Of a stretch of 64,000 nucleotides of DNA, positions 15,082-47,566 are shown one piece after another (positions within the stretch are counted from its first letter, which is position 1; each line of letters opens with the position of its first letter). Location: assembly GCF_054482595.1 (NCBI RefSeq), contig NZ_CM137008.1; one strand, given 5' to 3'. Both the position numbers and the translations under genes were made by a program. The notes beneath the pieces were generated by a model, which searched no databases, was not told the DNA's origin, and worked only from the letters and a program-made list of their open reading frames with translations.

Positions 15082-15816
15082 GTAGGCATAATAAGACGCG
15101 GTAAGCGTCGCATCAGGCATCGGCGCATGGTGTCGGATGCGGCGCGAGCGCCTTATCCGACCTGCGGTTCAGGCCTGTAGGCATGATAAGACGCGCCTGC
15201 GTCGCATCAGGCATCTGCGCATGGTGTCGGATGCGGCGCGAACGCCTTATCCGACCTGCGGTTCAGGCCTGTAGGCATGATAAGACGCGCCTGCGTCGCA
15301 TCAGGCATCGGCGCACGGTGTCGGATGCGCCGCGAGCGCCTTATCCGACCTACGGTTCAGGCCTGTAGGTATGATAAGACGCGCCTGCGTCGCATCAGGC
15401 ACTGAGCACGGTGTCGGATGCGGCGCGAGCGCCTTATCCGACCTACGGTTCAGGCCTGTAGGCATGATAAGACGCATCAGCGTCGCATCAGGCATCGGCA
15501 CACGGTGTCGGATGCGGTGCGAGCGCCTTATCCGACCTACGGTTCAGGCCTGTAGGCATGATAAGACGCATCAGCGTCGCATCAGGCATCGGCACACGGT
15601 GTCGGATGCGGCGCGAGCGCCTTATCCGACCTACGGTTCAGGCCTGTAGGTATGATAAGACGCATCAGCGTCGCATCAGGCACTGAGCACGGTGTCGGAT
15701 GCGGTGCGAGCGCCTTATCCGACCTACGGTTCAGGCCTGTAGGCATGATAAGACGCGCCAGCGTCGCATCAGGCATCTGCGCACAACTGTCGGATGCGCC
15801 ACGCGACGCATCCGAC
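15082..15816. repeat. BIME / REP array: about 8 tandem units of about 94 bp, each containing two oppositely oriented palindromic units
   Basis: gtcggatgcggcgcgagcgccttatccgac recurs at about 15131, 15226, 15319, 15413, 15507, 15601, 15683 and 15790, interleaved with cgtcgcatcaggcatc. Confidence 0.9.
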
Positions 15817-27337: not shown

Positions 27338-28294
27338 TTAAACCACCCGATCCAGCCCCAACATGCCGCGAGCCTGAATGAAACAGAGCAGCAACGTTCC
27401 CCATAAGGCCATCGTCAGGTAGGGGCTTATACCGAGAATATTGAAGCCGCTTTCAATAATTTGCAGAAGAAACAGCGCCAGCACCATACCAATTATCCGC
27501 CCGCTGCCGCCGTCCGGATTAACCCCGCCGAGTACTGCCGCGAGGATTGACACCAGCAAGTACGATTCGCCATAAGAGGCCTTAGCCGAGTTGAGTTTCG
27601 ACATCATCAAAAATGCCGCTACCGCACAAAGCAAGGCGGAAATGACATAAACCCAAATCAGCACCCGACGAGTGTTAATGCCGGAGTAAAGTGTTGCTCG
27701 TTCGTTAGACCCAATCAGGTAAATGGCTTTACCGAGCGGCGTTTTCTCCAGCAATATCCACAGCCCCAGTGCCACTGCGGCAAACAACCACATCGGTAGC
27801 GGAATACCGAACCATTGCGCATGATTCAACCACAGCACCCATGAGGGATAATTGGCAATGGCGCTACCACCTGTCACCAGAATATTTATCCCTTTGAGCA
27901 ACGTCATCATCCCAAGCGTTGCAAGAATTGGCGACACTCGAATACCAGCAATCAATACGCCGTTACATAAACCGATTATCACCGCCGCGCCAGCGCCCGC
28001 CAGTAACGTAGCGACAACCGTAGCAATACCCGGTGGATACTGAGTCGCCACCCACGCCATCACCAGTGAACAGGCGTTAGCAGTGGCTATAATTGACAAG
28101 TTAATGCCACCGCAAAGCATGGTCACCGCCATAGCCAACGCCAGAATGCCCAGCACGGGCATTTGCGAAGCGACGGACTGGAAATTACTTATCGACCAGA
28201 AAATCTCCGGCATAGTAATGCTGAACGCGGCAACAGTTAGCACCAGCAGGCCGATCAAGTAAAACTCAACGTTATTACGCCACGATTTTTTCAT
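27338..28294 (-). CDS. ABC transporter permease (CUT2/ribose-type)
   Basis: Polytopic membrane protein; start overlaps upstream stop in an ATGA arrangement. Confidence 0.8.
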   Translation of the reverse strand: MKKSWRNNVEFYLIGLLVLTVAAFSITMPEIFWSISNFQSVASQMPVLGILALAMAVTMLCGGINLSIIATANACSLVMAWVATQYPPGIATVVATLLAGAGAAVIIGLCNGVLIAGIRVSPILATLGMMTLLKGINILVTGGSAIANYPSWVLWLNHAQWFGIPLPMWLFAAVALGLWILLEKTPLGKAIYLIGSNERATLYSGINTRRVLIWVYVISALLCAVAAFLMMSKLNSAKASYGESYLLVSILAAVLGGVNPDGGSGRIIGMVLALFLLQIIESGFNILGISPYLTMALWGTLLLCFIQARGMLGLDRVV

Positions 28295-29262
28295 AGCAGA
28301 CTCCGGTTCTGATGCTGACTCCACGCCGTGGCACTAATGCTGGCAACGATGATGATGCCGGTGATCAATGTTTGCCAGTAAGACGAGACTCCCAATAAAT
28401 TTAGCCCGTTTTGCATCACTGCCAACAACACCACGCCGAGCAAAGTACCGGTTAACGTGCCGCGCCCGCCGAGCAAACTAGTGCCGCCAAGCACCACCGC
28501 AGCCAGTACTGTCAGCTCATAACCCAGAAGAGAATCGGGGGCGACAGTCATCACCGTCCACGACTGCACTACACCCGCAGCGCCAGACATCAATCCCATA
28601 TAGCCATAGACGAAAAGTTGCAGTTTCAGCACGCTAAAGCCGATGCGACTGGCTGATTCGCGGTTCCCGCCAAGGGCATAAATTTTGCGCCCTACACTGG
28701 TGAAATTCATGATAAACGCTGTTAGCAGCACCACCGTAATCATGGCGATCAGCGGCAGACCAAGGCCATAGTCATAGCCATCAGCATCGGTGTACTTGAA
28801 CAACATAACCCCCTGCTCAAACCACGGCGGAAAGTCGTACAGCCACACACCTTTACTCAACCATAACAGCAGGCCATAGAAAATATTCAGCGTCGAGATA
28901 GTGATGATGATAGAAGGCACCCGTAGGCGATTAACCAGTAAGGCGTTAATTAAGCCAAGTAAAATGCCGATGCAGCCCGCCAGTGCAAACGCGACAGCGA
29001 AGTTGCCACCAATTTTTTGCAGCAACAGCACCATGCCGTATTGCGCCATGATGGTCATTGCTGGAAACGAAATATCAATTCCACCGGAAATCAACACCAC
29101 AAACAAACCACAGGCGAGAATAGTCAACATGGCATAGTTATTGGCGAGATCGTACAAATTACCGAATGTCAGAAACTCGTCGCTGCGCCAGGCAAGGCCA
29201 ACAAACAGCACCACAATCAGTAATGCCAGCCAGAATTCATGGCGTTTTTTCAGTTCAGCCAT
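28291..29262 (-). CDS. ABC transporter permease (CUT2/ribose-type)
   Basis: 323-aa polytopic membrane protein, overlaps ATPase gene stop. Confidence 0.8.
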   Translation of the reverse strand: MAELKKRHEFWLALLIVVLFVGLAWRSDEFLTFGNLYDLANNYAMLTILACGLFVVLISGGIDISFPAMTIMAQYGMVLLLQKIGGNFAVAFALAGCIGILLGLINALLVNRLRVPSIIITISTLNIFYGLLLWLSKGVWLYDFPPWFEQGVMLFKYTDADGYDYGLGLPLIAMITVVLLTAFIMNFTSVGRKIYALGGNRESASRIGFSVLKLQLFVYGYMGLMSGAAGVVQSWTVMTVAPDSLLGYELTVLAAVVLGGTSLLGGRGTLTGTLLGVVLLAVMQNGLNLLGVSSYWQTLITGIIIVASISATAWSQHQNRSLL

Positions 29263-30739
29263 TTACCACCTCCGCAATCCTGGCCTGAGAACTGCTGTCA
29301 GGCAGGAAGCTATGGGTGATCTGTCCTTTTTGCATTACCAAAATCCGGTGGCTTTGATACCACGCTTCTTCAATTTCATCGCAGATCATCAATACCGCAA
29401 TGCCATGAGCCGCCAGATCGCTGATAATGCCGTATATTCCTGCTTTGTTGGCGATATCAACACCGACTGTCGGGCTATCGAGAATCAACAGTCGTGGCCC
29501 AATCGCCAGCCATTTGGCGATCGATACTCGCTGCGCGTTACCACCAGAAAGCGTATTCACCGGGAGATGAGGATCAGAGACTTTGATGGTCAATGCCTTG
29601 ATTAGCCTGTCCACCAGGTCACGCACTTTAGTTTCACTCAGAAAGCCGAAGCGATCTTTTACCTTGTGAAAAACAGTGCTAATGATGTTGTCTTCAATAG
29701 ATTGCGCCATCACCAAACCGCGCGACATGCGATCTTCCGAAACATAACCAATACCGTGGCGGATGGCGTCCTGGTTACTATGCAGTGTAACCAGCTGGCC
29801 GTTGATGAGGATCTCGCCAGAATCCGGTCGGGTCATACCAAACAGACTCAGACATAATTCCGTGCGCCCCGCACCAAGCAGGCCAACAATCGATACCACT
29901 TCGCCCGCTTCCACCCGCAAGTTAATATTTAGATATTCCCCATGACGACTTAAATTACGCACCTCCAGCACCGGGGTGCTGGATTTTCCCTGCCACAACT
30001 CTCGCACCTGATATTCAAACTCCTGGCCGGTCATCAGGAAACCGAGTTGTTTTGTGGTCATCTCTGCAGCCGGAAAAGTCCCGACCAGCTCACCATCTTT
30101 CAGCACTGAAATACGGTCGGAAACTTCCATCACTTCTTCCAGACGATGACTGACGAAGACCACGCAGATCCCGCGTTCCCGCAATTGATGCACCACCTGT
30201 AATAACCCTTGCACTTCCTGATGGGTCAGCGAAGCGGTTGGTTCATCCATCACGATCAACCGTGCGTCCTGCGCCAGTGCACGGCAAATTGCCACCAGCT
30301 GACAGCGGGCAATTGAAAGCTCAGAAACGAGCGTATCCAGTGGCAATGTGACGTTAATACTGGTCATTGCCGCCTGCGCCACCTCACGCAGACGACGTCG
30401 GTTAACAAACAGACCGTGGTGATAGTGATTCACGGCGATATTCTCCCAGACACTCAGGTTAGGAAATAAAGAGAGGTCCTGATAAATCACCTGAATCCCC
30501 TGCGCCACCGAAGCGGCGGGTGTCAGCTTTGACCATTTTTTCCCACCAAGCGTAATTTCCGCTCCCTCATCCGGGCGATAAACACCGGACATAATTTTGA
30601 TCAACGTCGATTTACCACAGCCGTTTTGCCCGGCAAGGCAGTGCACTTCACCCGACATAAAGTCGAGAGAAACATCGCGCAGCGCTCGCGTGGCATGAAA
30701 CGTTTTGTTGATATGACGAAGGGAAAGGAAGGTTTCCAT
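29255..30739 (-). CDS. Sugar ABC transporter ATP-binding protein with duplicated ABC domains
   Basis: Two Walker A motifs (GQNGCGKST and a second degenerate domain), LSGG signatures; about 495 aa typical of RbsA/LsrA-type ATPases. Confidence 0.85.
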   Translation of the reverse strand: METFLSLRHINKTFHATRALRDVSLDFMSGEVHCLAGQNGCGKSTLIKIMSGVYRPDEGAEITLGGKKWSKLTPAASVAQGIQVIYQDLSLFPNLSVWENIAVNHYHHGLFVNRRRLREVAQAAMTSINVTLPLDTLVSELSIARCQLVAICRALAQDARLIVMDEPTASLTHQEVQGLLQVVHQLRERGICVVFVSHRLEEVMEVSDRISVLKDGELVGTFPAAEMTTKQLGFLMTGQEFEYQVRELWQGKSSTPVLEVRNLSRHGEYLNINLRVEAGEVVSIVGLLGAGRTELCLSLFGMTRPDSGEILINGQLVTLHSNQDAIRHGIGYVSEDRMSRGLVMAQSIEDNIISTVFHKVKDRFGFLSETKVRDLVDRLIKALTIKVSDPHLPVNTLSGGNAQRVSIAKWLAIGPRLLILDSPTVGVDIANKAGIYGIISDLAAHGIAVLMICDEIEEAWYQSHRILVMQKGQITHSFLPDSSSQARIAEVVNG

Positions 30740-30787
30740 AACATCCCCTGGCAATAAGAATCGGGGCTTTCGCCCCGAAGAAATGGA

Positions 30788-31774
30788 TTAATAAAGTGAG
30801 TCGATATTGTCTTTGTTGACCAGTAATACCTTATGGAAACGGATAATTCGCTTATCCATATCTACGTCGGCCTTACCCAGATTCTGCATTTCTAATCCAG
30901 GTTTGATCTCTTCACCCTTCAGCAACGTGCTGGCGACGGCTGCGAGTGCGTAACCTGCAGAGGCCGGATCGTAAGTAATCCCTTCGGTGATATCACCACT
31001 TTTAATCAGTGATGCCGCCTGTGAAGGGATCATCATGCCATAGACTGCGACTTTATTTTTCGCCCGTTTCTCTTTCACCGCACGTCCCGCGCCAATCGGA
31101 CCGTTTGAACCAAAGGAGACAACCGCTTTTAAGTCAGGATAGGTTTTCATCAGGTCCAGTGTGGTACGACGTGAGTCATCCACACTCTCGGCAACCGGCA
31201 TGCGGCGGGTAACTTCATGCATATCCGGGTAATGCTCTTTCTGGTATTTCACCAGCAAGTCAGCCCATAAGTTATGCTGCGGCACGGTCAAACTACCCAC
31301 GTAAATCACATAGCCGCCCTTGCCCCCCATGCGTTTCGCCATATGCTCAACATATTCAGCGGCAAATTTTTCGTTATCAATGATTTCGATATCCCAGTTA
31401 GCACTTGGCTGACCGGGGGATTCGTTGGTCAGAACCACAATTCCGGCATCTCGCGCTTTTTTGAATACCGGTTCCAGCACGTTGGCATCGTTTGGCACGA
31501 TAGTAATTGCATTAACCTTACGGGCGATTAAATCCTCAATAATTTTAACCTGTTGCGGAGCATCAGTACTTGAAGGCCCCACCTGTGACGCATTAACACC
31601 AAAGGCTTTACCCGCCTCAACCACACCTTCGCCCATGCGATTAAACCACGGCATACCATCGACTTTAGAAATATTCACCACGACTTTTTCCGCTGCCTGG
31701 AGCGGCGCAGAAATTAGCGCAGCGCCTAATAACAGCGAAGACACCATATTGATAACAAAACGTTTATTCATCAT
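30788..31774 (-). CDS. Periplasmic sugar-binding protein, LsrB/RbsB-like
   Basis: Signal peptide MMNKRFVINMVSSLLLGAALISAPLQA; C-terminus RIIRFHKVLLVNKDNIDSLY resembles LsrB ...VIFNKDNIDKYDF (recalled from memory). Confidence 0.8.
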   Translation of the reverse strand: MMNKRFVINMVSSLLLGAALISAPLQAAEKVVVNISKVDGMPWFNRMGEGVVEAGKAFGVNASQVGPSSTDAPQQVKIIEDLIARKVNAITIVPNDANVLEPVFKKARDAGIVVLTNESPGQPSANWDIEIIDNEKFAAEYVEHMAKRMGGKGGYVIYVGSLTVPQHNLWADLLVKYQKEHYPDMHEVTRRMPVAESVDDSRRTTLDLMKTYPDLKAVVSFGSNGPIGAGRAVKEKRAKNKVAVYGMMIPSQAASLIKSGDITEGITYDPASAGYALAAVASTLLKGEEIKPGLEMQNLGKADVDMDKRIIRFHKVLLVNKDNIDSLY

Positions 31775-32024
31775 TTCAGCCTCATTGCAGGGTAGTCAGG
31801 AAGTGTTCGCCCAAATTAGCGCGCTGGAGAGAATAAGAATTTTCGAATATTTTTATGCAGAATAAACAGCCCTATTTCAGGCAGCTATTAAAAATATGGT
31901 TATAAATATGGACAAAACGGGCAGCAACAATAAGTGTGACATTCATCACGTTAAAAATAGCAAAATAAACAAAATTAGCGATATTTTATGTGTGTGAGTT
32001 TATTTCGCGTATATAAATAGTTAT

Positions 32025-32435
32025 CTACACAACGTCAATAAGGGCATATTCTTCAAAGATAACGTCCATTTCTGGTGAATAGCTTCCTTCTGCCTGGAAA
32101 AAACGACGGTGTTCATTACGCCAATATTCAAGACTGAGGTCACCTTCACCTTCCTTACGGGCAAGCTCCGCGGTGACATCAGAAAAGCGCAGTAAATGCA
32201 GGCCAATCACTCTGATAACACATACAGGCTCACCACGGCTATTTTCTACAATCTTATACTCACCAATCATCGGAAATGAGTTGTCTTCAATACATCCTGC
32301 CAGCGAACCACAGGAAGCTGTTTTAACACCAGTCGCAATCAACGTTGCGAGGTGATCGGCCAACGCTGCAGAATCGCCAAAAGTACAAAAGGAAGCATGG
32401 GGATATTTTTGTAAGATTTTTTCTTTTATGGTCAT
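32025..32435 (-). CDS. ASCH-domain protein
   Basis: 136-aa protein with a beta-barrel ASCH-like core; start set at MTIKEKILQKYP. Confidence 0.55.
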   Translation of the reverse strand: MTIKEKILQKYPHASFCTFGDSAALADHLATLIATGVKTASCGSLAGCIEDNSFPMIGEYKIVENSRGEPVCVIRVIGLHLLRFSDVTAELARKEGEGDLSLEYWRNEHRRFFQAEGSYSPEMDVIFEEYALIDVV

Positions 32436-32733
32436 GAGAATATTTTCGCGATTACGGAAAAACAAATCACATCTTAATTACTGTTGGTAACCATCAGCAA
32501 GAGTATCATTGGTTTTTCGATACTGAATCTTTTTTATCCGAAGCAGGTCACATTTATGGCCTGATAAATACCTTTGTTAAAACTCACTTTTGTGTATTTC
32601 TCTCAAATAATCCCCTGGAAATTATGCCGGGAGATTATAAAGTTCAGGATCATTCATTAGCAAACCATTCCCGCCCCACTCCCTGGGGCTTAAATCTCTT
32701 ACTATTCACCGTTGCAGGCGTTTCAAATGCGCA

Positions 32734-35076: not shown

Positions 35077-35126
35077 CTTGTTATGTCCGCTACAGAGGGT
35101 GATGGGGTTATGACCAACGCCAGACT

Positions 35127-35484
35127 GCCTGATGCGCTACGCTTATCAGGCCTACAATTCTCGTGCCACTCGTAGGCCGGATAAGGCGTTCACGCCACAT
35201 CCGGCAATGGTGACAAATGCCTGATGCGCTACGCTTATCAGGCCTACAATTCTTGCGCCATTCGTAGGCCGGATAAGGCGTTCACGCCGCATCCGGCAAT
35301 GGTGACAAATGCCTGATGCGCTACGCTTATCAGGCCTACAAATTCTTGCGCCACTTGTAGGCCGGATAAGGCGTTCACGCCGCATCCGGCAATGGTGACA
35401 AATGCCTGATGCGCTACGCTTATCAGGCCTACAGATTCTTGCGCCACTTGTAGGCCGGATAAGGCGTTCACGCCGCATCCGGCA
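35127..35484. repeat. BIME / REP array, about 4 tandem units of about 94 bp
   Basis: gcctgatgcgctacgcttatcaggcctaca ... gccggataaggcgttcacgccgcatccggc repeated at about 35127, 35218, 35312, 35406. Confidence 0.9.
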
Positions 35485-41780: not shown

Positions 41781-42869
41781 TCAACCACCTGCTTTCATTA
41801 CCCATTCAGAGATAAATTTATTACCCGGTACTGGCGGAGAGTACAAATAGCCCTGCAAAAAGTGAACGCCTTTACCGATCATTAAATCCGCCTGCTCCTG
41901 GGTTTCTACCCCTTCCGCCACGATACTCAGACCAGGCTTACGCGCTAGTTCGACAATATTGTCCACAATATGACCGGAGATTTCGTCGACACTCGCCATT
42001 TGCACAAATGACTTATCGATCTTAATAAAATCGACCGGGAACGCCTGCAAGTAACGATAGGTCGCATAACCCGTACCAAAGTCATCCAGCGCAAAGGTAA
42101 TGTTGTGCTGATGAAGGCTGTCAAATATCGCTCTGGCTTCTGGCGTTACCGGAATAGGGTTACGTTCCGTTAGCTCGAGAACCAGCTTGATTTTATCGTT
42201 ACCTAATTTCTTAACCAGGTTCAGACACTCTTTTTCAAATCCCGCTGCCAAAAAACAACCCGCCGAGACGTTGATGCCAATATGGAAATTGTCCGGCAGC
42301 AAATGTTTTACCGGCATCAGAATATCCGCAGTCTGTTTCATCAGTTGGCGGGTCATTATGACAATAAGACCGGATGACTCCGCCAGAGGAATAAACTGAT
42401 CCGGTGGGATAATTCCCGTTTGTGGATGTTCCCAGCGGACAAGTACCTCACAGCCCGTCAGTACCCCAGTCTGCGCGCAGAAAACCGGTTGGATCCACGG
42501 TTTGAATTCGTGGTTTTCCAACGCCAGACTGATGGCTTCAGGCGTGACGATATGGTGACAACGGTTATCAGGGATATAAAAATTATTTTTATTTCCCGTG
42601 CCACTGATGACTTGCGGATGATATTGAAAAAAGATATCCCGCCAGAAGGTAATATCACTCTGGATGCCTAGTTTTTCATACAGCTGCTTCTTTTGATGTG
42701 AAATTGTCTTTGCACTGCGATTTCTGTACTGTGAGATTTCTGTAACCGACATTCCCTCCATTAGCAGCTTGAGTAAAAGCCGTTCTTTTTCGGACACGAT
42801 ACCAGGCAACGTCAAATTCACCGTTGCCCCGAACTCTTCCAAAAAAACACTCAAATCATGCGAAGCCAT
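41781..42869 (-). CDS. pdeL: c-di-GMP phosphodiesterase PdeL (YahA): LuxR-type HTH + EAL domain
   Basis: N-terminal LuxR HTH (LLKLLMEGMSVTEISQYRNRSAKTISHQKKQLYEKLG), C-terminal EAL domain (ELTE, DDFGTGY motifs). Confidence 0.9.
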   Translation of the reverse strand: MASHDLSVFLEEFGATVNLTLPGIVSEKERLLLKLLMEGMSVTEISQYRNRSAKTISHQKKQLYEKLGIQSDITFWRDIFFQYHPQVISGTGNKNNFYIPDNRCHHIVTPEAISLALENHEFKPWIQPVFCAQTGVLTGCEVLVRWEHPQTGIIPPDQFIPLAESSGLIVIMTRQLMKQTADILMPVKHLLPDNFHIGINVSAGCFLAAGFEKECLNLVKKLGNDKIKLVLELTERNPIPVTPEARAIFDSLHQHNITFALDDFGTGYATYRYLQAFPVDFIKIDKSFVQMASVDEISGHIVDNIVELARKPGLSIVAEGVETQEQADLMIGKGVHFLQGYLYSPPVPGNKFISEWVMKAGG

Positions 42870-42939
42870 CGAACACACCTTGATTAAATCTTGTGCGCCA
42901 GCTAAATCTGCGAGTCTTCACTCTGACTGATAAAGCTGG

Positions 42940-42988
42940 CTGCAAGAAAATGACACAGAGAGCCGAATTATCTCCCGTTCGGCTCTCT
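42940..42988 (-). terminator. Probable intrinsic terminator downstream of the autotransporter gene
   Basis: 11-bp perfect stem agagagccgaa / ttcggctctct (42957-42988) with 10-nt loop; on the minus strand followed by a U-rich tract (gugucauuuucuu). Confidence 0.5.
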
Positions 42989-43010
42989 CTCCTTTTACTC
43001 ATTATTCAGA

Positions 43011-46000
43011 TCAGAATTGCCACTTAATGCCAACCATTGCAGAGGTGTCATTATATCCCCTATCGGCAACCTGAACGCCCACATTCCCCCAGACATTCAG
43101 GTTGGCATTTAGCTGTCCTTCCACCCCGGTTTTTATCTCAGCAATATTTCGGGCTCCATCCTGAGTGACGGACACGCCATCCATACTGGTGCTGAAATCC
43201 TTACTGTTATGCAGCCAGTTCACTTCTACAAACGGCTGGAACTCGCGGGATTTACCGTCATCCATTTTATGGTGGCTCTTCAGCCAGGTTTTTACGCCAA
43301 GTCGGGTTTGAACATTGCCATCACCGTTGCTATGAACGAGGGTTCCGTTGCTTTCGCGGTGCTTATCGGCTTTGACTCCCATCCAGGTAACCTGTGCTTG
43401 CGGCTGAACATACCATTCATTACGCGTTCCCTGGCTGCCATTAAATTCAGCTAATTTGTGTTTGTATCCAGCTTCCAGTGAAGCGGTAAATCCTTTTGAT
43501 TTATAGGATTCACTTTGTAAGTCATCCCCTTTCACTGTGTTATCAAACCAGCTGTACTGCGCCCAACTGTCGAGATACGCGCCATTACGCGACTCGTCAT
43601 CGGCATACCAGGTGGCATAGAGGCCGGTGCTATATCCGTTCACACTCGCTTTTGCACGATAACCGGTTCGCGAGGAAATGGTTTTGCTGTCGCTGTTGCC
43701 ATATCCCGCCATGACCCCAACATGCCAGCTGTCGCTGCCGTTTTGGCTCCACTGCGCGACATCGCCTCCCAGTTGCAGAACATAGCGATTGCTTTGGGTT
43801 TTCAGCTGGCCGCTGCCATCACGCCATTTATTATGACCACCTTCATGGCGCATCCACATAGTGGTTTGTTTCTGCTCACCCGTCACCATGTCGGTATAGT
43901 ACGTATTACCCAGACGCTCATGCAGACGCGTGGTGAACATTGTATTCGCTGCTGCAAGGTTCGCAATGTAGCTACCCGCCTCCGGTCGCAGGTCATTATC
44001 CACATTCAGATCCGGACCCGGCGTAGGTGTCGGGTTAGGGTTCGGCTCTGGATTCGGGTTTGGCTCCGGATTCGGCATCGGGTCTGGCTCCGGCTGCAGT
44101 TCAGGAGAATCACTGCCGCTGGTCAGATACCAGTTACCACTATTTGCCCCTTGTCCACGCGCGAGAGTGTAGTCATACGCCCCCGCAACGATACGACCAG
44201 CCTGAACAAATTCGCCCTCAGACTTACCGTCTACATGGATAAGTTCGATACCGTTAAGGGTTTTCGCACCTGTACCGCCAGCGTTATTCACCGTAACGGC
44301 AGTCGTGCCGCTAGTATCGCCCTCGACAACCAATTTATCGGTTACTGAGTCATCGCCATTCAGTACCGTATTCATTACTAGTTGACCGTTATTACCGTGG
44401 TAGTTCCCCTTCACCACTAACACATTGCCAGCTTGCTGTCCTGACATTCCGGTCATCAGCGTACCGTTGTTGGTCAGATTGCCGCCCAGGGTGTAATTCA
44501 CAGACGCAGCCGCTCTTTTTTCAGTGCTATTATTCAACGCCAGGGTACCGTTGTTCTCAACGTTTGCGCTACCCAATCCCTGCGCATGACTTACCAGGAC
44601 ATTAGCCGAATTAGCAATGTTCACATTCGCCGTCAGGTTGCTGTTATCGCCCGCGATGTCCAGCGTGCCGCCCTGAATATTCAGCTCTCCGCTCCCCGTT
44701 AACGAACCGGTTGAAGTGCCCCCGTTGGTAACCGTCAGACTGCCGCCATTTAAGCTCAGCAGTGAATCGGCGCTGCCATTGAGCGTGCCCACGGTCTGGC
44801 TGTGACCATTCATATCCAGTTCAGTCTCTGCCGCCAGACGCAGTTCATGGGTATTACCCAACACGTTATCGTTATTCAACAAAAGCGTCCCACTGCGCAG
44901 ATCGGTAACACCGGTATAGTCGTTGTCTTTGTTAGAAAGCGATACGGTCTGACCCTTCTGGCTGCTGAATGCCAGGTCACCACTGCCGGTAATCTTTGCG
45001 CTGAGATCGGCGGCATTCTCGCTTTTACCGTTAGAGCTCAGCACCAGAGCATCGCTGTCGGTAGCGTGTAAATCAAGCTGGGTCAGGCCGTAACCGATAT
45101 ACAGACCGTCATTGTTTACCCCACTCGTCAGACGATAGTCGTAAGTGCCGACGGCCGCTTTTTGCCCATTCTGCTGAATATCACGTTGGGCGCTGCTGGA
45201 GAGGATTTGCCCATTTTTATCCTGCAATTGCAGATTGCCCGCATCGCCCAGAACTTCCGCACCTTGCGCATCAACCAGCTTAATGGCGCTGTTACCATCA
45301 TCGACTTCAGTGAGCGATAACGCAGAGTCAATATCACGAGATACTGAGCGGACAACGTCACTGTCAGAAACCTGAATCACACCCTCGCCGCGCAAATCCA
45401 GCGTTTTACTAACGTTGACCGTCCCTTCTGTCATCTGTGCACCTGCTGTCAGGGCACCAAAATCAACGGTTCCGCCGGAGAATCCCAAAGTGCTAATGGA
45501 GTGAGCGCCCTTACCCACTGTTACCTGGCTTCCCTGACCCGCAGTGATCCCGCCTCTCTGCAGAAACTCAGCATTCTTTTCCAGGTTAAATGTCGTGTTC
45601 TGAAACGCCAGTGAACCCTGGAACCAGTCTGTATAAGCAAACTCATCGAAGGAGAATTCGTGATTCCCCATGTTTATTTCAACAATACCTCTACCTTGAA
45701 GATCGTTATCAAATACCCAATCTTTATTGGCATTGATTTGCAGTTTGCCATCAACATCCAGGTCCGCACGGCCGATGTTCTTGTCTTCAGAAATAACCGC
45801 GACAGCACCAGAAGCGACATCAATATATCCGCTGAATGCATAGTTATTGCCGGTCAGTGCCACTGTCCCACTGTCGATACTTATTGTACCATTGCCGGAA
45901 ATCTTATTGGCAAAGGTCATGCTATCGTCAGCCTTCAGGTGTAATTTCCCGCGGTTGTTGATCTCTGCTGTACCTATATTTTTGGTGATCCCTAAAGCGC

Positions 46001-46994
46001 CATTTTGCTCAATTTTGACTTTACCACTAAAGGCAGAGTTATCACCGGTTAAGTAAGTCGTGCCATTGAGCGCATTGATATAGCCCAGGCCCTCGCTGCC
46101 ACTGACAATATCCGCGGAAATAGTCGCGTTTTTATCCGTGTGGTTTAAGGTGATTTTCTTATCGGATGTCTTTGCCCACACAAACTCAATTTTTTCGGCA
46201 TCAATAATCCCTGCAGCCTTCGCAGCACTTCCTTCCTGTGCATCTAACGCTAACTCAGAGTTGGTGCTTAAACTAATTTTCGGTGCGGATATTTTACCTC
46301 CATCTGATACGACTAATGTTGTATCAGAACGTTGGTCGTAATAACCCAGGCTAATATGTTCACGAGCATTAACTTCACCACCGTTATTAACCGACAGGAA
46401 CTGATTACCGCCATATCCGCCGTAAACGCCCATAAAGAAGGTCCCTGCATTTACCTGACTACCTTCGCCGCTTACATTCCCCTGCGTATAAGTCAGACGA
46501 CTGGTGCCCTTAACATGAATTTTGCCGCCATTGGAGACATTAAAATAGCCTTGATCATGTCTCATGCCTGAGTTTGACTCATACAAATCATCAGCATATA
46601 ACTCGCTGCCAGCATTGGAGACATTCAGGAACCCCGTACCTTTCAGCAAAAAGTTAAGCGGGCCATTGATTGTTACCTTTCCTCCGGTAATATCCAACCC
46701 ACCACCAGAAGCGAGAGTCAGACGCGGACGGGAAGTATCTGTCGTATTGATTACCAGATTGGCATTGTCAGTCACCGTAATACGGTAATCGATGCTCTGG
46801 TTCTCTTTGCCAAAATCAATAGTTTTATCCTGGTTTACGATGACATCATCGGCGAATACCAGAGATGAATATAAACTTATCGCGCTAATTAAAACAGCCC
46901 GGGACTTTTTTCCTTTTACTCTGCTCCCCAGCTCAGAGCAGACGCTCCAACAGTTACGGGACCTGTTCCACTTTAGCCGATATATTTTATTCAT
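43011..46994 (-). CDS. ehaA: AIDA-I-type autotransporter adhesin, EhaA-like (1327 aa from the ESPR Met)
   Basis: Extended signal peptide MNKIYRLKWNRSRNCWSVCSELGSRVKGKK; long beta-helical passenger; Pro-rich linker PEPDPMPNPEPNPNPEPNPNPTPTPGP; C-terminal beta-barrel ending ...VGIKWQF; size and location between yahA and betT match EhaA as I recall it. Confidence 0.7.
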   Translation of the reverse strand: MNKIYRLKWNRSRNCWSVCSELGSRVKGKKSRAVLISAISLYSSLVFADDVIVNQDKTIDFGKENQSIDYRITVTDNANLVINTTDTSRPRLTLASGGGLDITGGKVTINGPLNFLLKGTGFLNVSNAGSELYADDLYESNSGMRHDQGYFNVSNGGKIHVKGTSRLTYTQGNVSGEGSQVNAGTFFMGVYGGYGGNQFLSVNNGGEVNAREHISLGYYDQRSDTTLVVSDGGKISAPKISLSTNSELALDAQEGSAAKAAGIIDAEKIEFVWAKTSDKKITLNHTDKNATISADIVSGSEGLGYINALNGTTYLTGDNSAFSGKVKIEQNGALGITKNIGTAEINNRGKLHLKADDSMTFANKISGNGTISIDSGTVALTGNNYAFSGYIDVASGAVAVISEDKNIGRADLDVDGKLQINANKDWVFDNDLQGRGIVEINMGNHEFSFDEFAYTDWFQGSLAFQNTTFNLEKNAEFLQRGGITAGQGSQVTVGKGAHSISTLGFSGGTVDFGALTAGAQMTEGTVNVSKTLDLRGEGVIQVSDSDVVRSVSRDIDSALSLTEVDDGNSAIKLVDAQGAEVLGDAGNLQLQDKNGQILSSSAQRDIQQNGQKAAVGTYDYRLTSGVNNDGLYIGYGLTQLDLHATDSDALVLSSNGKSENAADLSAKITGSGDLAFSSQKGQTVSLSNKDNDYTGVTDLRSGTLLLNNDNVLGNTHELRLAAETELDMNGHSQTVGTLNGSADSLLSLNGGSLTVTNGGTSTGSLTGSGELNIQGGTLDIAGDNSNLTANVNIANSANVLVSHAQGLGSANVENNGTLALNNSTEKRAAASVNYTLGGNLTNNGTLMTGMSGQQAGNVLVVKGNYHGNNGQLVMNTVLNGDDSVTDKLVVEGDTSGTTAVTVNNAGGTGAKTLNGIELIHVDGKSEGEFVQAGRIVAGAYDYTLARGQGANSGNWYLTSGSDSPELQPEPDPMPNPEPNPNPEPNPNPTPTPGPDLNVDNDLRPEAGSYIANLAAANTMFTTRLHERLGNTYYTDMVTGEQKQTTMWMRHEGGHNKWRDGSGQLKTQSNRYVLQLGGDVAQWSQNGSDSWHVGVMAGYGNSDSKTISSRTGYRAKASVNGYSTGLYATWYADDESRNGAYLDSWAQYSWFDNTVKGDDLQSESYKSKGFTASLEAGYKHKLAEFNGSQGTRNEWYVQPQAQVTWMGVKADKHRESNGTLVHSNGDGNVQTRLGVKTWLKSHHKMDDGKSREFQPFVEVNWLHNSKDFSTSMDGVSVTQDGARNIAEIKTGVEGQLNANLNVWGNVGVQVADRGYNDTSAMVGIKWQF

Positions 46995-47566
46995 CACAAT
47001 CTCCAGCAATACATCCAAATAAAACCAAGATTGCATAAACAGCAACGCATTAAATGCCATTCTGGTTACTGTTCATCGCATATAAAAATTCAAAAATTTT
47101 GCATAGCATTGGCAACCACATATCTGAGTATGTAGTTCAGAGGGTAATAAAATAGCAAGTTATTACTTAAAACTTATTTTAAGTTAACACTCTTAACTTT
47201 ATCATTACATTCCTCCCAGTCTCTAATACCTGCGCATTATATGTATCCAGGAACTCAAATCAACTCAAAATATAAACAAAAGCAAGAGGAATACATTTAA
47301 TATACAGCCGATAAAAGCGGTAACTCTTATTAGGTATCAAAATATAAGAATCGTCTTATTAATAAATATATAACACTATAGGACTGAATCCATTCAGCTA
47401 ATACAAAATAAAATCGTTAATTAATAAAATATAAAATCATGAAGTGATACAAGAGGAATTGCAGGATATGACATGACAATCATATATAATATATGCATAA
47501 TTTTTTACAGCGAGTCAATGATTCCCGCGCCATATGCAGACATGGCGCGGTTTTATGCAAAAACAA

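Follow-up and report, generated by a model that had tools for sequence, protein, structure and literature searches.

ehaA and the pdeL promoter module: apparently old haplotypes between betT and pdeL in Escherichia coli

How does an adhesin gene that is missing from K-12 come to lie between betT and pdeL (yahA) in other strains of Escherichia coli, and from what promoter is it likely to be read? The question is posed by ehaA, which occupies 43011-46994 on the minus strand of a 64,000-nucleotide stretch of contig NZ_CM137008.1 from assembly GCF_054482595.1 (this whole stretch is termed the window). In the window, mhpR and lacI are followed by the prp, cyn and yah genes and then by pdeL, betTIBA and ykgH, all reversed relative to K-12. 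A first-pass annotation, made from the sequence alone, had taken the interval 42879-47566 for an autotransporter gene inserted between pdeL and betT together with an AT-rich upstream region, as is typical of H-NS-silenced, horizontally acquired adhesin genes. Our comparisons lead to another picture, in which we place high confidence: the segment is ehaA, that is O-island 15 (OI-15), as one of two old haplotypes that extend from a hairpin beyond betT to about codon 105 of pdeL, with one promoter module kept in both. In the first of these, the 'E-type' haplotype, the module fronts ehaA, which is followed by a hairpin and then by pdeL; the second, the 'S-type' or K-12-type haplotype, is the form with 820 bp that include yahV. 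That ehaA exists, what it encodes, that K-12 lacks it and that it constitutes OI-15 are all published facts; what we add is that the locus is a replacement, that this replacement reaches into pdeL and that a conserved Cra box and promoter module stands before ehaA. These new observations suggest that ehaA expression is wired into the switch formed by Cra, PdeL and cyclic di-GMP (c-di-GMP), a matter of relevance to work both on the adhesins of enterohaemorrhagic E. coli (EHEC) and on c-di-GMP signalling.

A replacement between betT and pdeL

On the minus strand the reading frame is uninterrupted from 43011 to 47060, equivalent to 1349 aa when counted from the first ATG. We place the real start of ehaA at the ATG at 46994, which gives a protein of 1327 aa plus stop, because a GGAG ribosome-binding site (47001-47004, minus strand) lies 6 nt upstream of it, the match to the extended signal peptide domain (ESPR) begins at residue 1, and RefSeq uses the same start. 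The interval 42879-47566 is 100% identical in E. coli strain XH990 (megablast, 5426 complete E. coli genomes). The ehaA coding sequence (CDS) has ~100% nucleotide identity (rounded) in O111:H8 and other strains, where the genes are annotated 'autotransporter adhesin EhaA', and 97.5% in O157:H7 strains; at the protein level 1301 of the 1327 residues (98%) are identical to WP_001491890.1 of O157:H7 strain ATCC 35150, in an alignment devoid of gaps. Sequence identity thereby assigns the open reading frame (ORF) 43011-46994 (minus strand) to ehaA, the single gene of OI-15. The comparison with K-12 and O157:H7 genomes that the first-pass annotation had put forward as a check in this way confirmed the identity with ehaA, and it also delimited the segment that differs. 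In PMC8565820, OI-15 of strain EDL933 is given as 4643 bp long, missing from K-12 and with ehaA (z0402) as its sole ORF; the differing segment here is 4642 bp. Likeness to EhaA of O157:H7 (z0402/OI-15; Wells et al. 2008, as cited in PMC8565820 and PMC9289746) extends to the gene itself, the length of 1327 aa and the betT-ehaA-pdeL position, whereas the 26 amino acid substitutions fall nearly all in the N-terminal passenger.

For the comparison with K-12, the BW25113 interval was aligned to the window. Homology runs to 42884, 15 nt before the pdeL ATG, a distance that takes in just the ribosome-binding site, and it returns at 47527, the second base of the hairpin beyond betT. The segment without an alignable K-12 counterpart, which corresponds to OI-15 of EDL933, is 42885-47526 (4642 bp). 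In its place K-12 has 820 bp of other DNA, with 33% GC and yahV in it, which does not align to the window. The K-12-derived records BW25113 and EV36 match the interval 42879-47566 only across its last 40 bp; K-12 lacks ehaA, as the annotation had stated. Its statement that yahA directly adjoins betT in K-12 proved mistaken: the pdeL-betT spacer there measures 874 bp, is AT-rich and contains both yahV and the pdeL promoter. Since K-12 has 820 bp of different DNA and no empty site, the difference between the two loci is a replacement (4642 bp versus 820 bp), and to call the segment 'inserted' is too simple.

A clean insertion is likewise not borne out at the left-hand side, where divergence reaches ~315 nt into pdeL itself. 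This gene (41781-42869) is ~100% identical to its K-12 counterpart over most of its length and 80-84% identical over the first 300-400 nt by sliding identity, with 61 mismatches in the first 300 nt. Its 5' third (42555-42869, minus strand; codons 1 to ~105, comprising the N-terminus, the helix-turn-helix (HTH) domain and the linker) belongs to the same divergent haplotype, with ~80% identity to K-12. When mismatches are counted per 50 nt, the pattern is the same in the window and in the O157:H7-type allele, and a third ehaA-bearing lineage differs in only three bins. Across 5154 genomes the 5' end of pdeL is strictly bimodal: 1394 records have at least 95% identity, 3761 have 80-90%, and only 3 fall at 90-95%. 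The two N-terminal forms of PdeL track the presence or absence of ehaA, with 24 differing positions in residues 1-104 and a nearly identical EAL domain, and the differences cluster at residues 2-24 and 84-104. We considered co-evolution of the DNA-binding helix of PdeL with its operators and rejected it, the HTH core (residues 25-83) being almost invariant between the haplotypes. The NCBI pipeline labels the ehaA-linked form of PdeL merely as an 'EAL domain-containing protein'.

A promoter module common to both haplotypes

The spacer between ehaA and betT (46995-47566, 572 bp) has a GC content of 30.9%, and the AT-richness reported by the first-pass annotation is thus confirmed. Three collinear islands in it are common to the window and to K-12 spacers, namely GCGCATTATATG, ATCAACT(C/G)AAAATA and GACTGAATCCATTCAGC. 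The second lies exactly 27 nt past GCGCATTATATG in both, and the third stands at 150 nt from the first in the window as against 153 nt in K-12. The words shared between the spacers are a 12-mer over the -10 element, a 14-mer over the -35 element and the 17-mer Cra (FruR) box, the last being the longest, at 17 nt, versus a maximum of 15 in 300 shuffles. When four E-type alleles, including that of Escherichia whittamii, were aligned with three K-12-type alleles, each from a different strain (in one case from a bloodstream isolate, with ~93% spacer identity to K-12), all three islands proved invariant across the seven, and the stretch between the -35 and -10 hexamers had diverged though the hexamers themselves were unchanged.

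The 17-mer GACTGAATCCATTCAGC, at 47382-47398 in the window, is identical to the experimentally defined Cra box of K-12 pdeL and occurs once in each allele that was fetched and once in the window. In K-12, an oligo ('CB CDB') and a mutant (CB-) place the box on this 17-mer (Reinders et al. 2021, bioRxiv 10.1101/2021.10.01.462762, supplement). According to the same study, Cra and PdeL jointly activate the K-12 pdeL promoter, H-NS silences it, the fragment that recruits RNA polymerase runs from the Cra box to GAGCAAAGGCGCATTATATG, between primers 4695 and 4283, and the promoter mutant 'P1-' changes the stretch between the islands (Reinders et al. 2021). A promoter scan predicts a sigma-70 promoter, TTGATT-16 nt-TATAAT, with 10/12 matches at 47236-47263 on the minus strand of the window, and it independently picked TTGATC-16 nt-TATAAT, also at 10/12, as the counterpart in the K-12 pdeL promoter fragment; the assignment of the -35 and -10 hexamers in the window and in K-12 is our own inference. 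The predicted ehaA start site lies near 47229, which would give a leader of ~235 nt. The AT-rich DNA upstream of ehaA, which the annotation had regarded as simple cargo of the gene, contains an orthologue of the core of the K-12 pdeL promoter and its Cra box. The two promoter regions are alike in their identical 17-nt Cra box, their hexamers with a 16-nt spacer, their AT-rich context and their place directly after the betT hairpin, and they differ in the first gene downstream, which is ehaA here and pdeL in K-12. The window lacks yahV as well as some 205 bp found upstream in K-12, among them the site known as 'CIB'.

In K-12, the small-protein gene yahV is located in the pdeL promoter, with CIB on one side and the Cra box on the other (compare 47394-47500 of the window). 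None of the small ORFs of the E-type spacer resembles K-12 YahV, and a 25-aa ORF at 47421-47498 is unrelated to it in sequence. A search of Rfam over 42600-47800 gave no match at E <= 1.

A further element shared by the two promoter regions is a single palindrome of the form ATAAG-N6-CTTAT, which in the window lies at 47344-47359 and is a candidate PdeL operator. It resembles the CIB of K-12, which we worked out from primer positions and the legend of Figure S1 in Reinders et al. 2021 to be TTAAATAAG-ACTAAA-CTTATTGAA. The location differs: the palindrome here is 21-22 bp promoter-proximal of the Cra box, whereas in K-12 it is 181 bp distal. The pattern has one match in the 64-kb window (0.08 expected) and none in a further 45 kb of K-12 DNA; it occurs exactly once per related locus, at CIB in the K-12-type alleles and beside the Cra box in all E-type alleles, and 49 of 20000 shuffles of the AT-rich spacer contained it. 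As the pattern was picked after the data had been seen, we regard these figures as suggestive of a PdeL operator.

Beyond the other end of ehaA, 23 nt after its stop codon, lies a hairpin with a 12-bp stem (42957-42988), conserved in 4/4 E-type alleles, whose tail on the ehaA strand, GUGUCAUUUUCUU, is U-rich and non-canonical. It is a probable terminator of ehaA ahead of pdeL, possibly a leaky one. In the 141 bp that precede pdeL the promoter scan detected no sigma-70-like site, and on the same strand the closest one is ~1.07 kb upstream, within ehaA; pdeL in the E-type haplotype is therefore likely to rely on read-through from the ehaA promoter, or else on an internal promoter that escaped recognition.

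Taken together with what has been established for K-12, the module points to control of ehaA by Cra, PdeL and H-NS: transcription would start from a Cra-activated, PdeL-responsive and H-NS-silenced promoter, and pdeL in ehaA-bearing strains would rely at least partly on read-through from it. A broader proposal, which we advance tentatively and with less than even confidence, is that by lying between the Cra/PdeL-controlled, H-NS-silenced pdeL promoter and pdeL, ehaA has made EhaA part of the bistable c-di-GMP switch known from PdeL of K-12, that pdeL autoregulation proceeds via an ehaA-pdeL transcript, and that the haplotypes represent two long-kept wirings of that switch. In that event EhaA would be made only in the PdeL-ON, low-c-di-GMP, Cra-active subpopulation, in about a quarter of E. 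coli. The arrangement hints at a coupling, open to testing, of adhesin expression to central metabolism through Cra and to c-di-GMP sensing through PdeL, and it counsels caution in transferring K-12 pdeL regulation to EHEC.

It is also possible, although we consider it doubtful, that the Cra box and the promoter islands are a relic, with ehaA either read from another promoter in the 235-nt leader or essentially silent, and with pdeL served by a promoter of its own in or after ehaA. A second promoter-like site on the minus strand (47205-47176, 9/12) would suit this explanation, as would the hairpin between ehaA and pdeL, the failure of the K-12 PdeL sites CDB and CIB to be conserved in place, and the fact that no published expression link turned up. 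It has to contend with the invariance of the islands in all seven alleles, amid surroundings that are unalignable between the types and ~80% identical between E. coli and E. whittamii; invariant islands amid such diverged DNA point to purifying selection. The lack of a sigma-70-like site between ehaA and pdeL likewise speaks against a separate pdeL promoter there, the nearest candidate being the one ~1.07 kb upstream inside ehaA.

Returning to the reading of two old haplotypes with a common, functional module, several observations weigh against it. Apart from the three islands there is no similarity above chance, local-alignment scores for the leader, for the stretch from the -35 element to the Cra box and for the distal part all being within shuffle distributions, so that common descent of the whole spacer region cannot be shown. 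The 'P1-' oligo alters two 9-nt blocks beside the hexamers and not the hexamers themselves (Reinders et al. 2021, bioRxiv 10.1101/2021.10.01.462762), one of the two has not been kept in the window, and the promoter elements meant by those authors may be a few bases away from the hexamers assigned here. The Cra box precedes the predicted start site by ~160 nt, a long distance for a simple activator. CDB, the PdeL box of K-12 that depends on Cra, is poorly conserved in the window, and nothing at the same place corresponds to the CIB region. A search of a literature library for ehaA in connection with Cra, pdeL or H-NS regulation returned no paper linking them and no ehaA expression data. Finally, either haplotype may be the ancestral one.

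Distribution and history of the two forms

By megablast of its CDS at a coverage of at least 80%, ehaA is present in 1388 of the 5426 complete E. coli genomes (~26%), O157:H7 and O111:H8 strains among them, and in these genomes the K-12 pdeL regulatory circuit fronts an adhesin gene and is accompanied by a different PdeL N-terminus. The K-12-type spacer was found in 3656 of the 5426 (~67%), a group that takes in ST131 and Nissle-type strains at about 93-95% spacer identity, and some 380 genomes have neither allele. The K-12-type spacer differs by ~7% between phylogroups and is therefore old.

Outside E. coli, a scan of one genome per species detected EhaA only in E. whittamii, at 91% aa identity, and on one contig of a metagenome-assembled genome (MAG). 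The latter, a 5.1-kb contig from a 'Collinsella sp.' MAG (JAIJJM010000200.1), encodes an EhaA 99% identical to that of E. coli and has the Cra box; it is most likely E. coli contamination of the bin. Outgroup information is accordingly thin, E. whittamii being the only credible carrier beyond E. coli in the scan. Its contig NZ_JACSQI010000015.1 has the arrangement of the window, collinear from yahD across pdeL, ehaA, the AT-rich spacer and the hairpin to the last 26 nt of betT, and is 90-97% identical to it over the flanking genes and 82-96% identical over ehaA. That ehaA has diverged to nearly the same degree as core genes fits a long residence at this locus and not a recent import. The remaining bet operon is missing from E. 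whittamii, and similarity (73%) returns around the end of betA (window 53424-53588).

These data bear directly on the origin first proposed for the segment, in which ehaA would be a foreign island of recent acquisition that went into a K-12-like betT-pdeL junction and brought along an AT-rich promoter of its own, silenced by H-NS, with the hairpin as a scar or insulator. The absence of ehaA from K-12 and from ~67% of genomes, the 30.9% GC of the upstream DNA, a right junction at the foot of the hairpin and the cataloguing of the segment as an O-island would all accord with such an origin. Yet the alignment to K-12 contradicts it and largely refutes it: there are 820 bp of other DNA where an empty site would be expected, and the divergence carries on into pdeL. 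Marks of mobility or recent import are also lacking, since no direct or inverted repeats spanning the junctions were found, the segment has neither integrase nor tRNA, with ehaA as the sole gene inside, and the CDS shows no deviant base composition (49.6% GC, against 51.0% for the window). Upstream, K-12 has the Cra box and promoter hexamers in common with the window, the hairpin is conserved in genomes that lack ehaA, and E. whittamii has the same arrangement at species-level divergence. We therefore hold a recent island to be very unlikely.

The converse history, in which the K-12 form arose within E. coli as an ehaA deletion derivative of the ehaA-bearing form, is also improbable in our estimation. 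It would account for the presence of ehaA at the same site in E. whittamii and for the fact that both forms keep the promoter module followed by a long leader. The flanks of such a deletion should, however, be near-identical, and yet the first ~315 nt of pdeL differ by ~20%. The K-12 leader resembles neither the ehaA leader, nor the ehaA-pdeL spacer, nor the ehaA CDS; alignment scores of the K-12 leader against these three are all within the shuffle distribution, without ehaA remnants or a deletion scar. The ~7% divergence of the K-12-type spacer between phylogroups argues in addition that this form is old. The existence of two old haplotypes at the betT-pdeL junction remains the reading that we favor.

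At the right-hand boundary of the variable segment, the annotation had described a hairpin at 47526-47549, just beyond the betT stop and in the orientation of a plus-strand terminator. The description is exact, with a stem one base pair longer: cgcgccat (47526-47533), a loop (47534-47541) and atggcgcg (47542-47549), then gttttat, with an extra C-G pair that makes a 9-bp GC-rich stem (47525-47550) 17 nt after the betT stop codon (47567-47569). The structure folds at -19.7 kcal/mol (z = -2.7 versus shuffles). The suggestion that it marks the insertion junction holds insofar as the right-hand junction falls exactly there, homology being back at 47527, and fails insofar as the hairpin is present in both alleles and is not island-borne. 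Because it is found in K-12 and, as part of the 40 bp mentioned above, is matched in ~4970 of 5426 E. coli genomes, it is to be counted with the conserved betT flank, not with the island. In a terminator scan the copy in the window is terminator-like on the plus strand only, antisense to betT, whereas that of K-12 is terminator-like on both strands, with a betT-sense tail UGUUUCUCCU; the corresponding tail in the window, GGAAUCAUUG, lies inside the variable segment and is not U-rich. On the simplest reading it is the betT terminator, bidirectional in form, with the haplotype boundary at its foot. It may possibly also insulate betT from antisense transcription out of the AT-rich region, as the annotation had offered. 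In E. whittamii the stem has two unpaired changes, a single case that fits relaxed constraint after loss of the bet operon. We saw no compensatory changes in either this hairpin or the one between ehaA and pdeL, the E. whittamii copies of both having unpaired changes.

The EhaA protein and other variable parts of the window

The description of EhaA as an AIDA-type autotransporter of 1327 aa with an extended signal peptide and a Pro-rich linker is supported by domain searches as well as by RefSeq identity. At the N-terminus, residues 1-38 (46881-46994, minus strand, as for all domains listed here) match the ESPR family (PF13018, E = 2e-09), and signal peptidase probably cleaves after VFA at residue 48, as judged by eye. 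The passenger ends in an autochaperone domain, AC_1 (residues 839-944, 44163-44480; PF18883, E = 2.8e-28), which is also recovered against the IcsA autochaperone structures 3ML3 and 5KE1 in PDB at E = 1e-27 to 1e-29; PATR repeats in the passenger give only weak matches (E >= 0.012). There follow a Pro-rich (PEPNPN...) linker (residues ~963-999, 43998-44108), with a low-complexity match to PF05887, and the translocator beta-barrel (residues ~1046-1305, 43080-43859; PF03797, E = 1.8e-46). The beta-domain scores above the cut-off of TIGR01414 (E = 2.5e-124), and the AIDA-I beta-domain structure (PDB 4MEE, E = 4.9e-92) is among the closest solved structures. A Sec signal peptide with ESPR, an autochaperone-bearing passenger and a C-terminal beta-barrel of the 12-stranded translocator kind thus identify the protein as a type Va (AIDA-I-type) autotransporter adhesin. 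The first-pass annotation had laid its identification of the protein open to refutation on two points, presence of the gene in K-12 and lack of the barrel; on neither did it give way, K-12 being without the gene and the protein having the barrel.

In a published classification EhaA falls into the 'Group 8' autotransporters of Clarke et al. 2022, together with IcsA, ShdA, MisL, YfaL, UpaE and AatA (PMC9289746). The likeness to AIDA-I/IcsA-type autotransporters covers the barrel (4MEE), the autochaperone (3ML3/5KE1) and the domain order ESPR-passenger-AC_1-barrel. In contrast, the passenger is EhaA-specific, and full-length scores are far under the curated cut-offs of the AIDA-I, MisL, ShdA and YfaL families. 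On the model of other proteins of this type, the ESPR signal peptide would direct EhaA to Sec export, the C-terminal barrel would insert in the outer membrane, and the passenger with its autochaperone domain would be threaded outward and retained at the cell surface. PMC8565820 describes EhaA of O157:H7 as surface-located and reports that on its overproduction cells aggregate, form biofilms and adhere to bovine terminal-rectum cells, whereas deletion of ehaA lowers adherence in pig ileal loops. Given 98% identity to that protein, we presume the same surface display, aggregation, biofilm formation and adhesion for EhaA here, so that surface-exposed EhaA would help cells to aggregate, to form biofilms and to adhere to bovine rectal epithelium.

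Three other segments of the window are absent from K-12. A 6-kb segment between betA and ykgH (53594-59575) encodes a tyrosine-type DNA invertase (54503-55123), two ORFs without NCBIfam matches and a 776-aa autotransporter (57172-59502). In RefSeq these genes are ipbA-hyxR-hyxA-hyxB, the known invertase-controlled hyx locus, which is present in 1830 of the 5426 genomes. With ehaA on its other side, the bet operon therefore has a strain-variable autotransporter gene at either end. A 5.2-kb segment between yahJ and yahK (27410-32672) contains a four-gene sugar ABC transporter, made up of a RhaS/LsrB-like binding protein, an ATPase and two permeases, and a 1.8-kb segment between mhpR and lacI (642-2475) has ORFs for a metal-dependent-hydrolase-like protein (748-1536) and an FtrA-like regulator of the AraC family (1556-2509). 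The window also holds two tandem arrays with units of about 93-94 bp, at 15271-15702 and 35121-35484. The unit of the first matches the K-12 stretch between codB and prpE, and that of the second corresponds to the yahH region of K-12 and, more weakly, to other K-12 sites; both arrays look like REP/BIME-type intergenic repeats that are expanded here.

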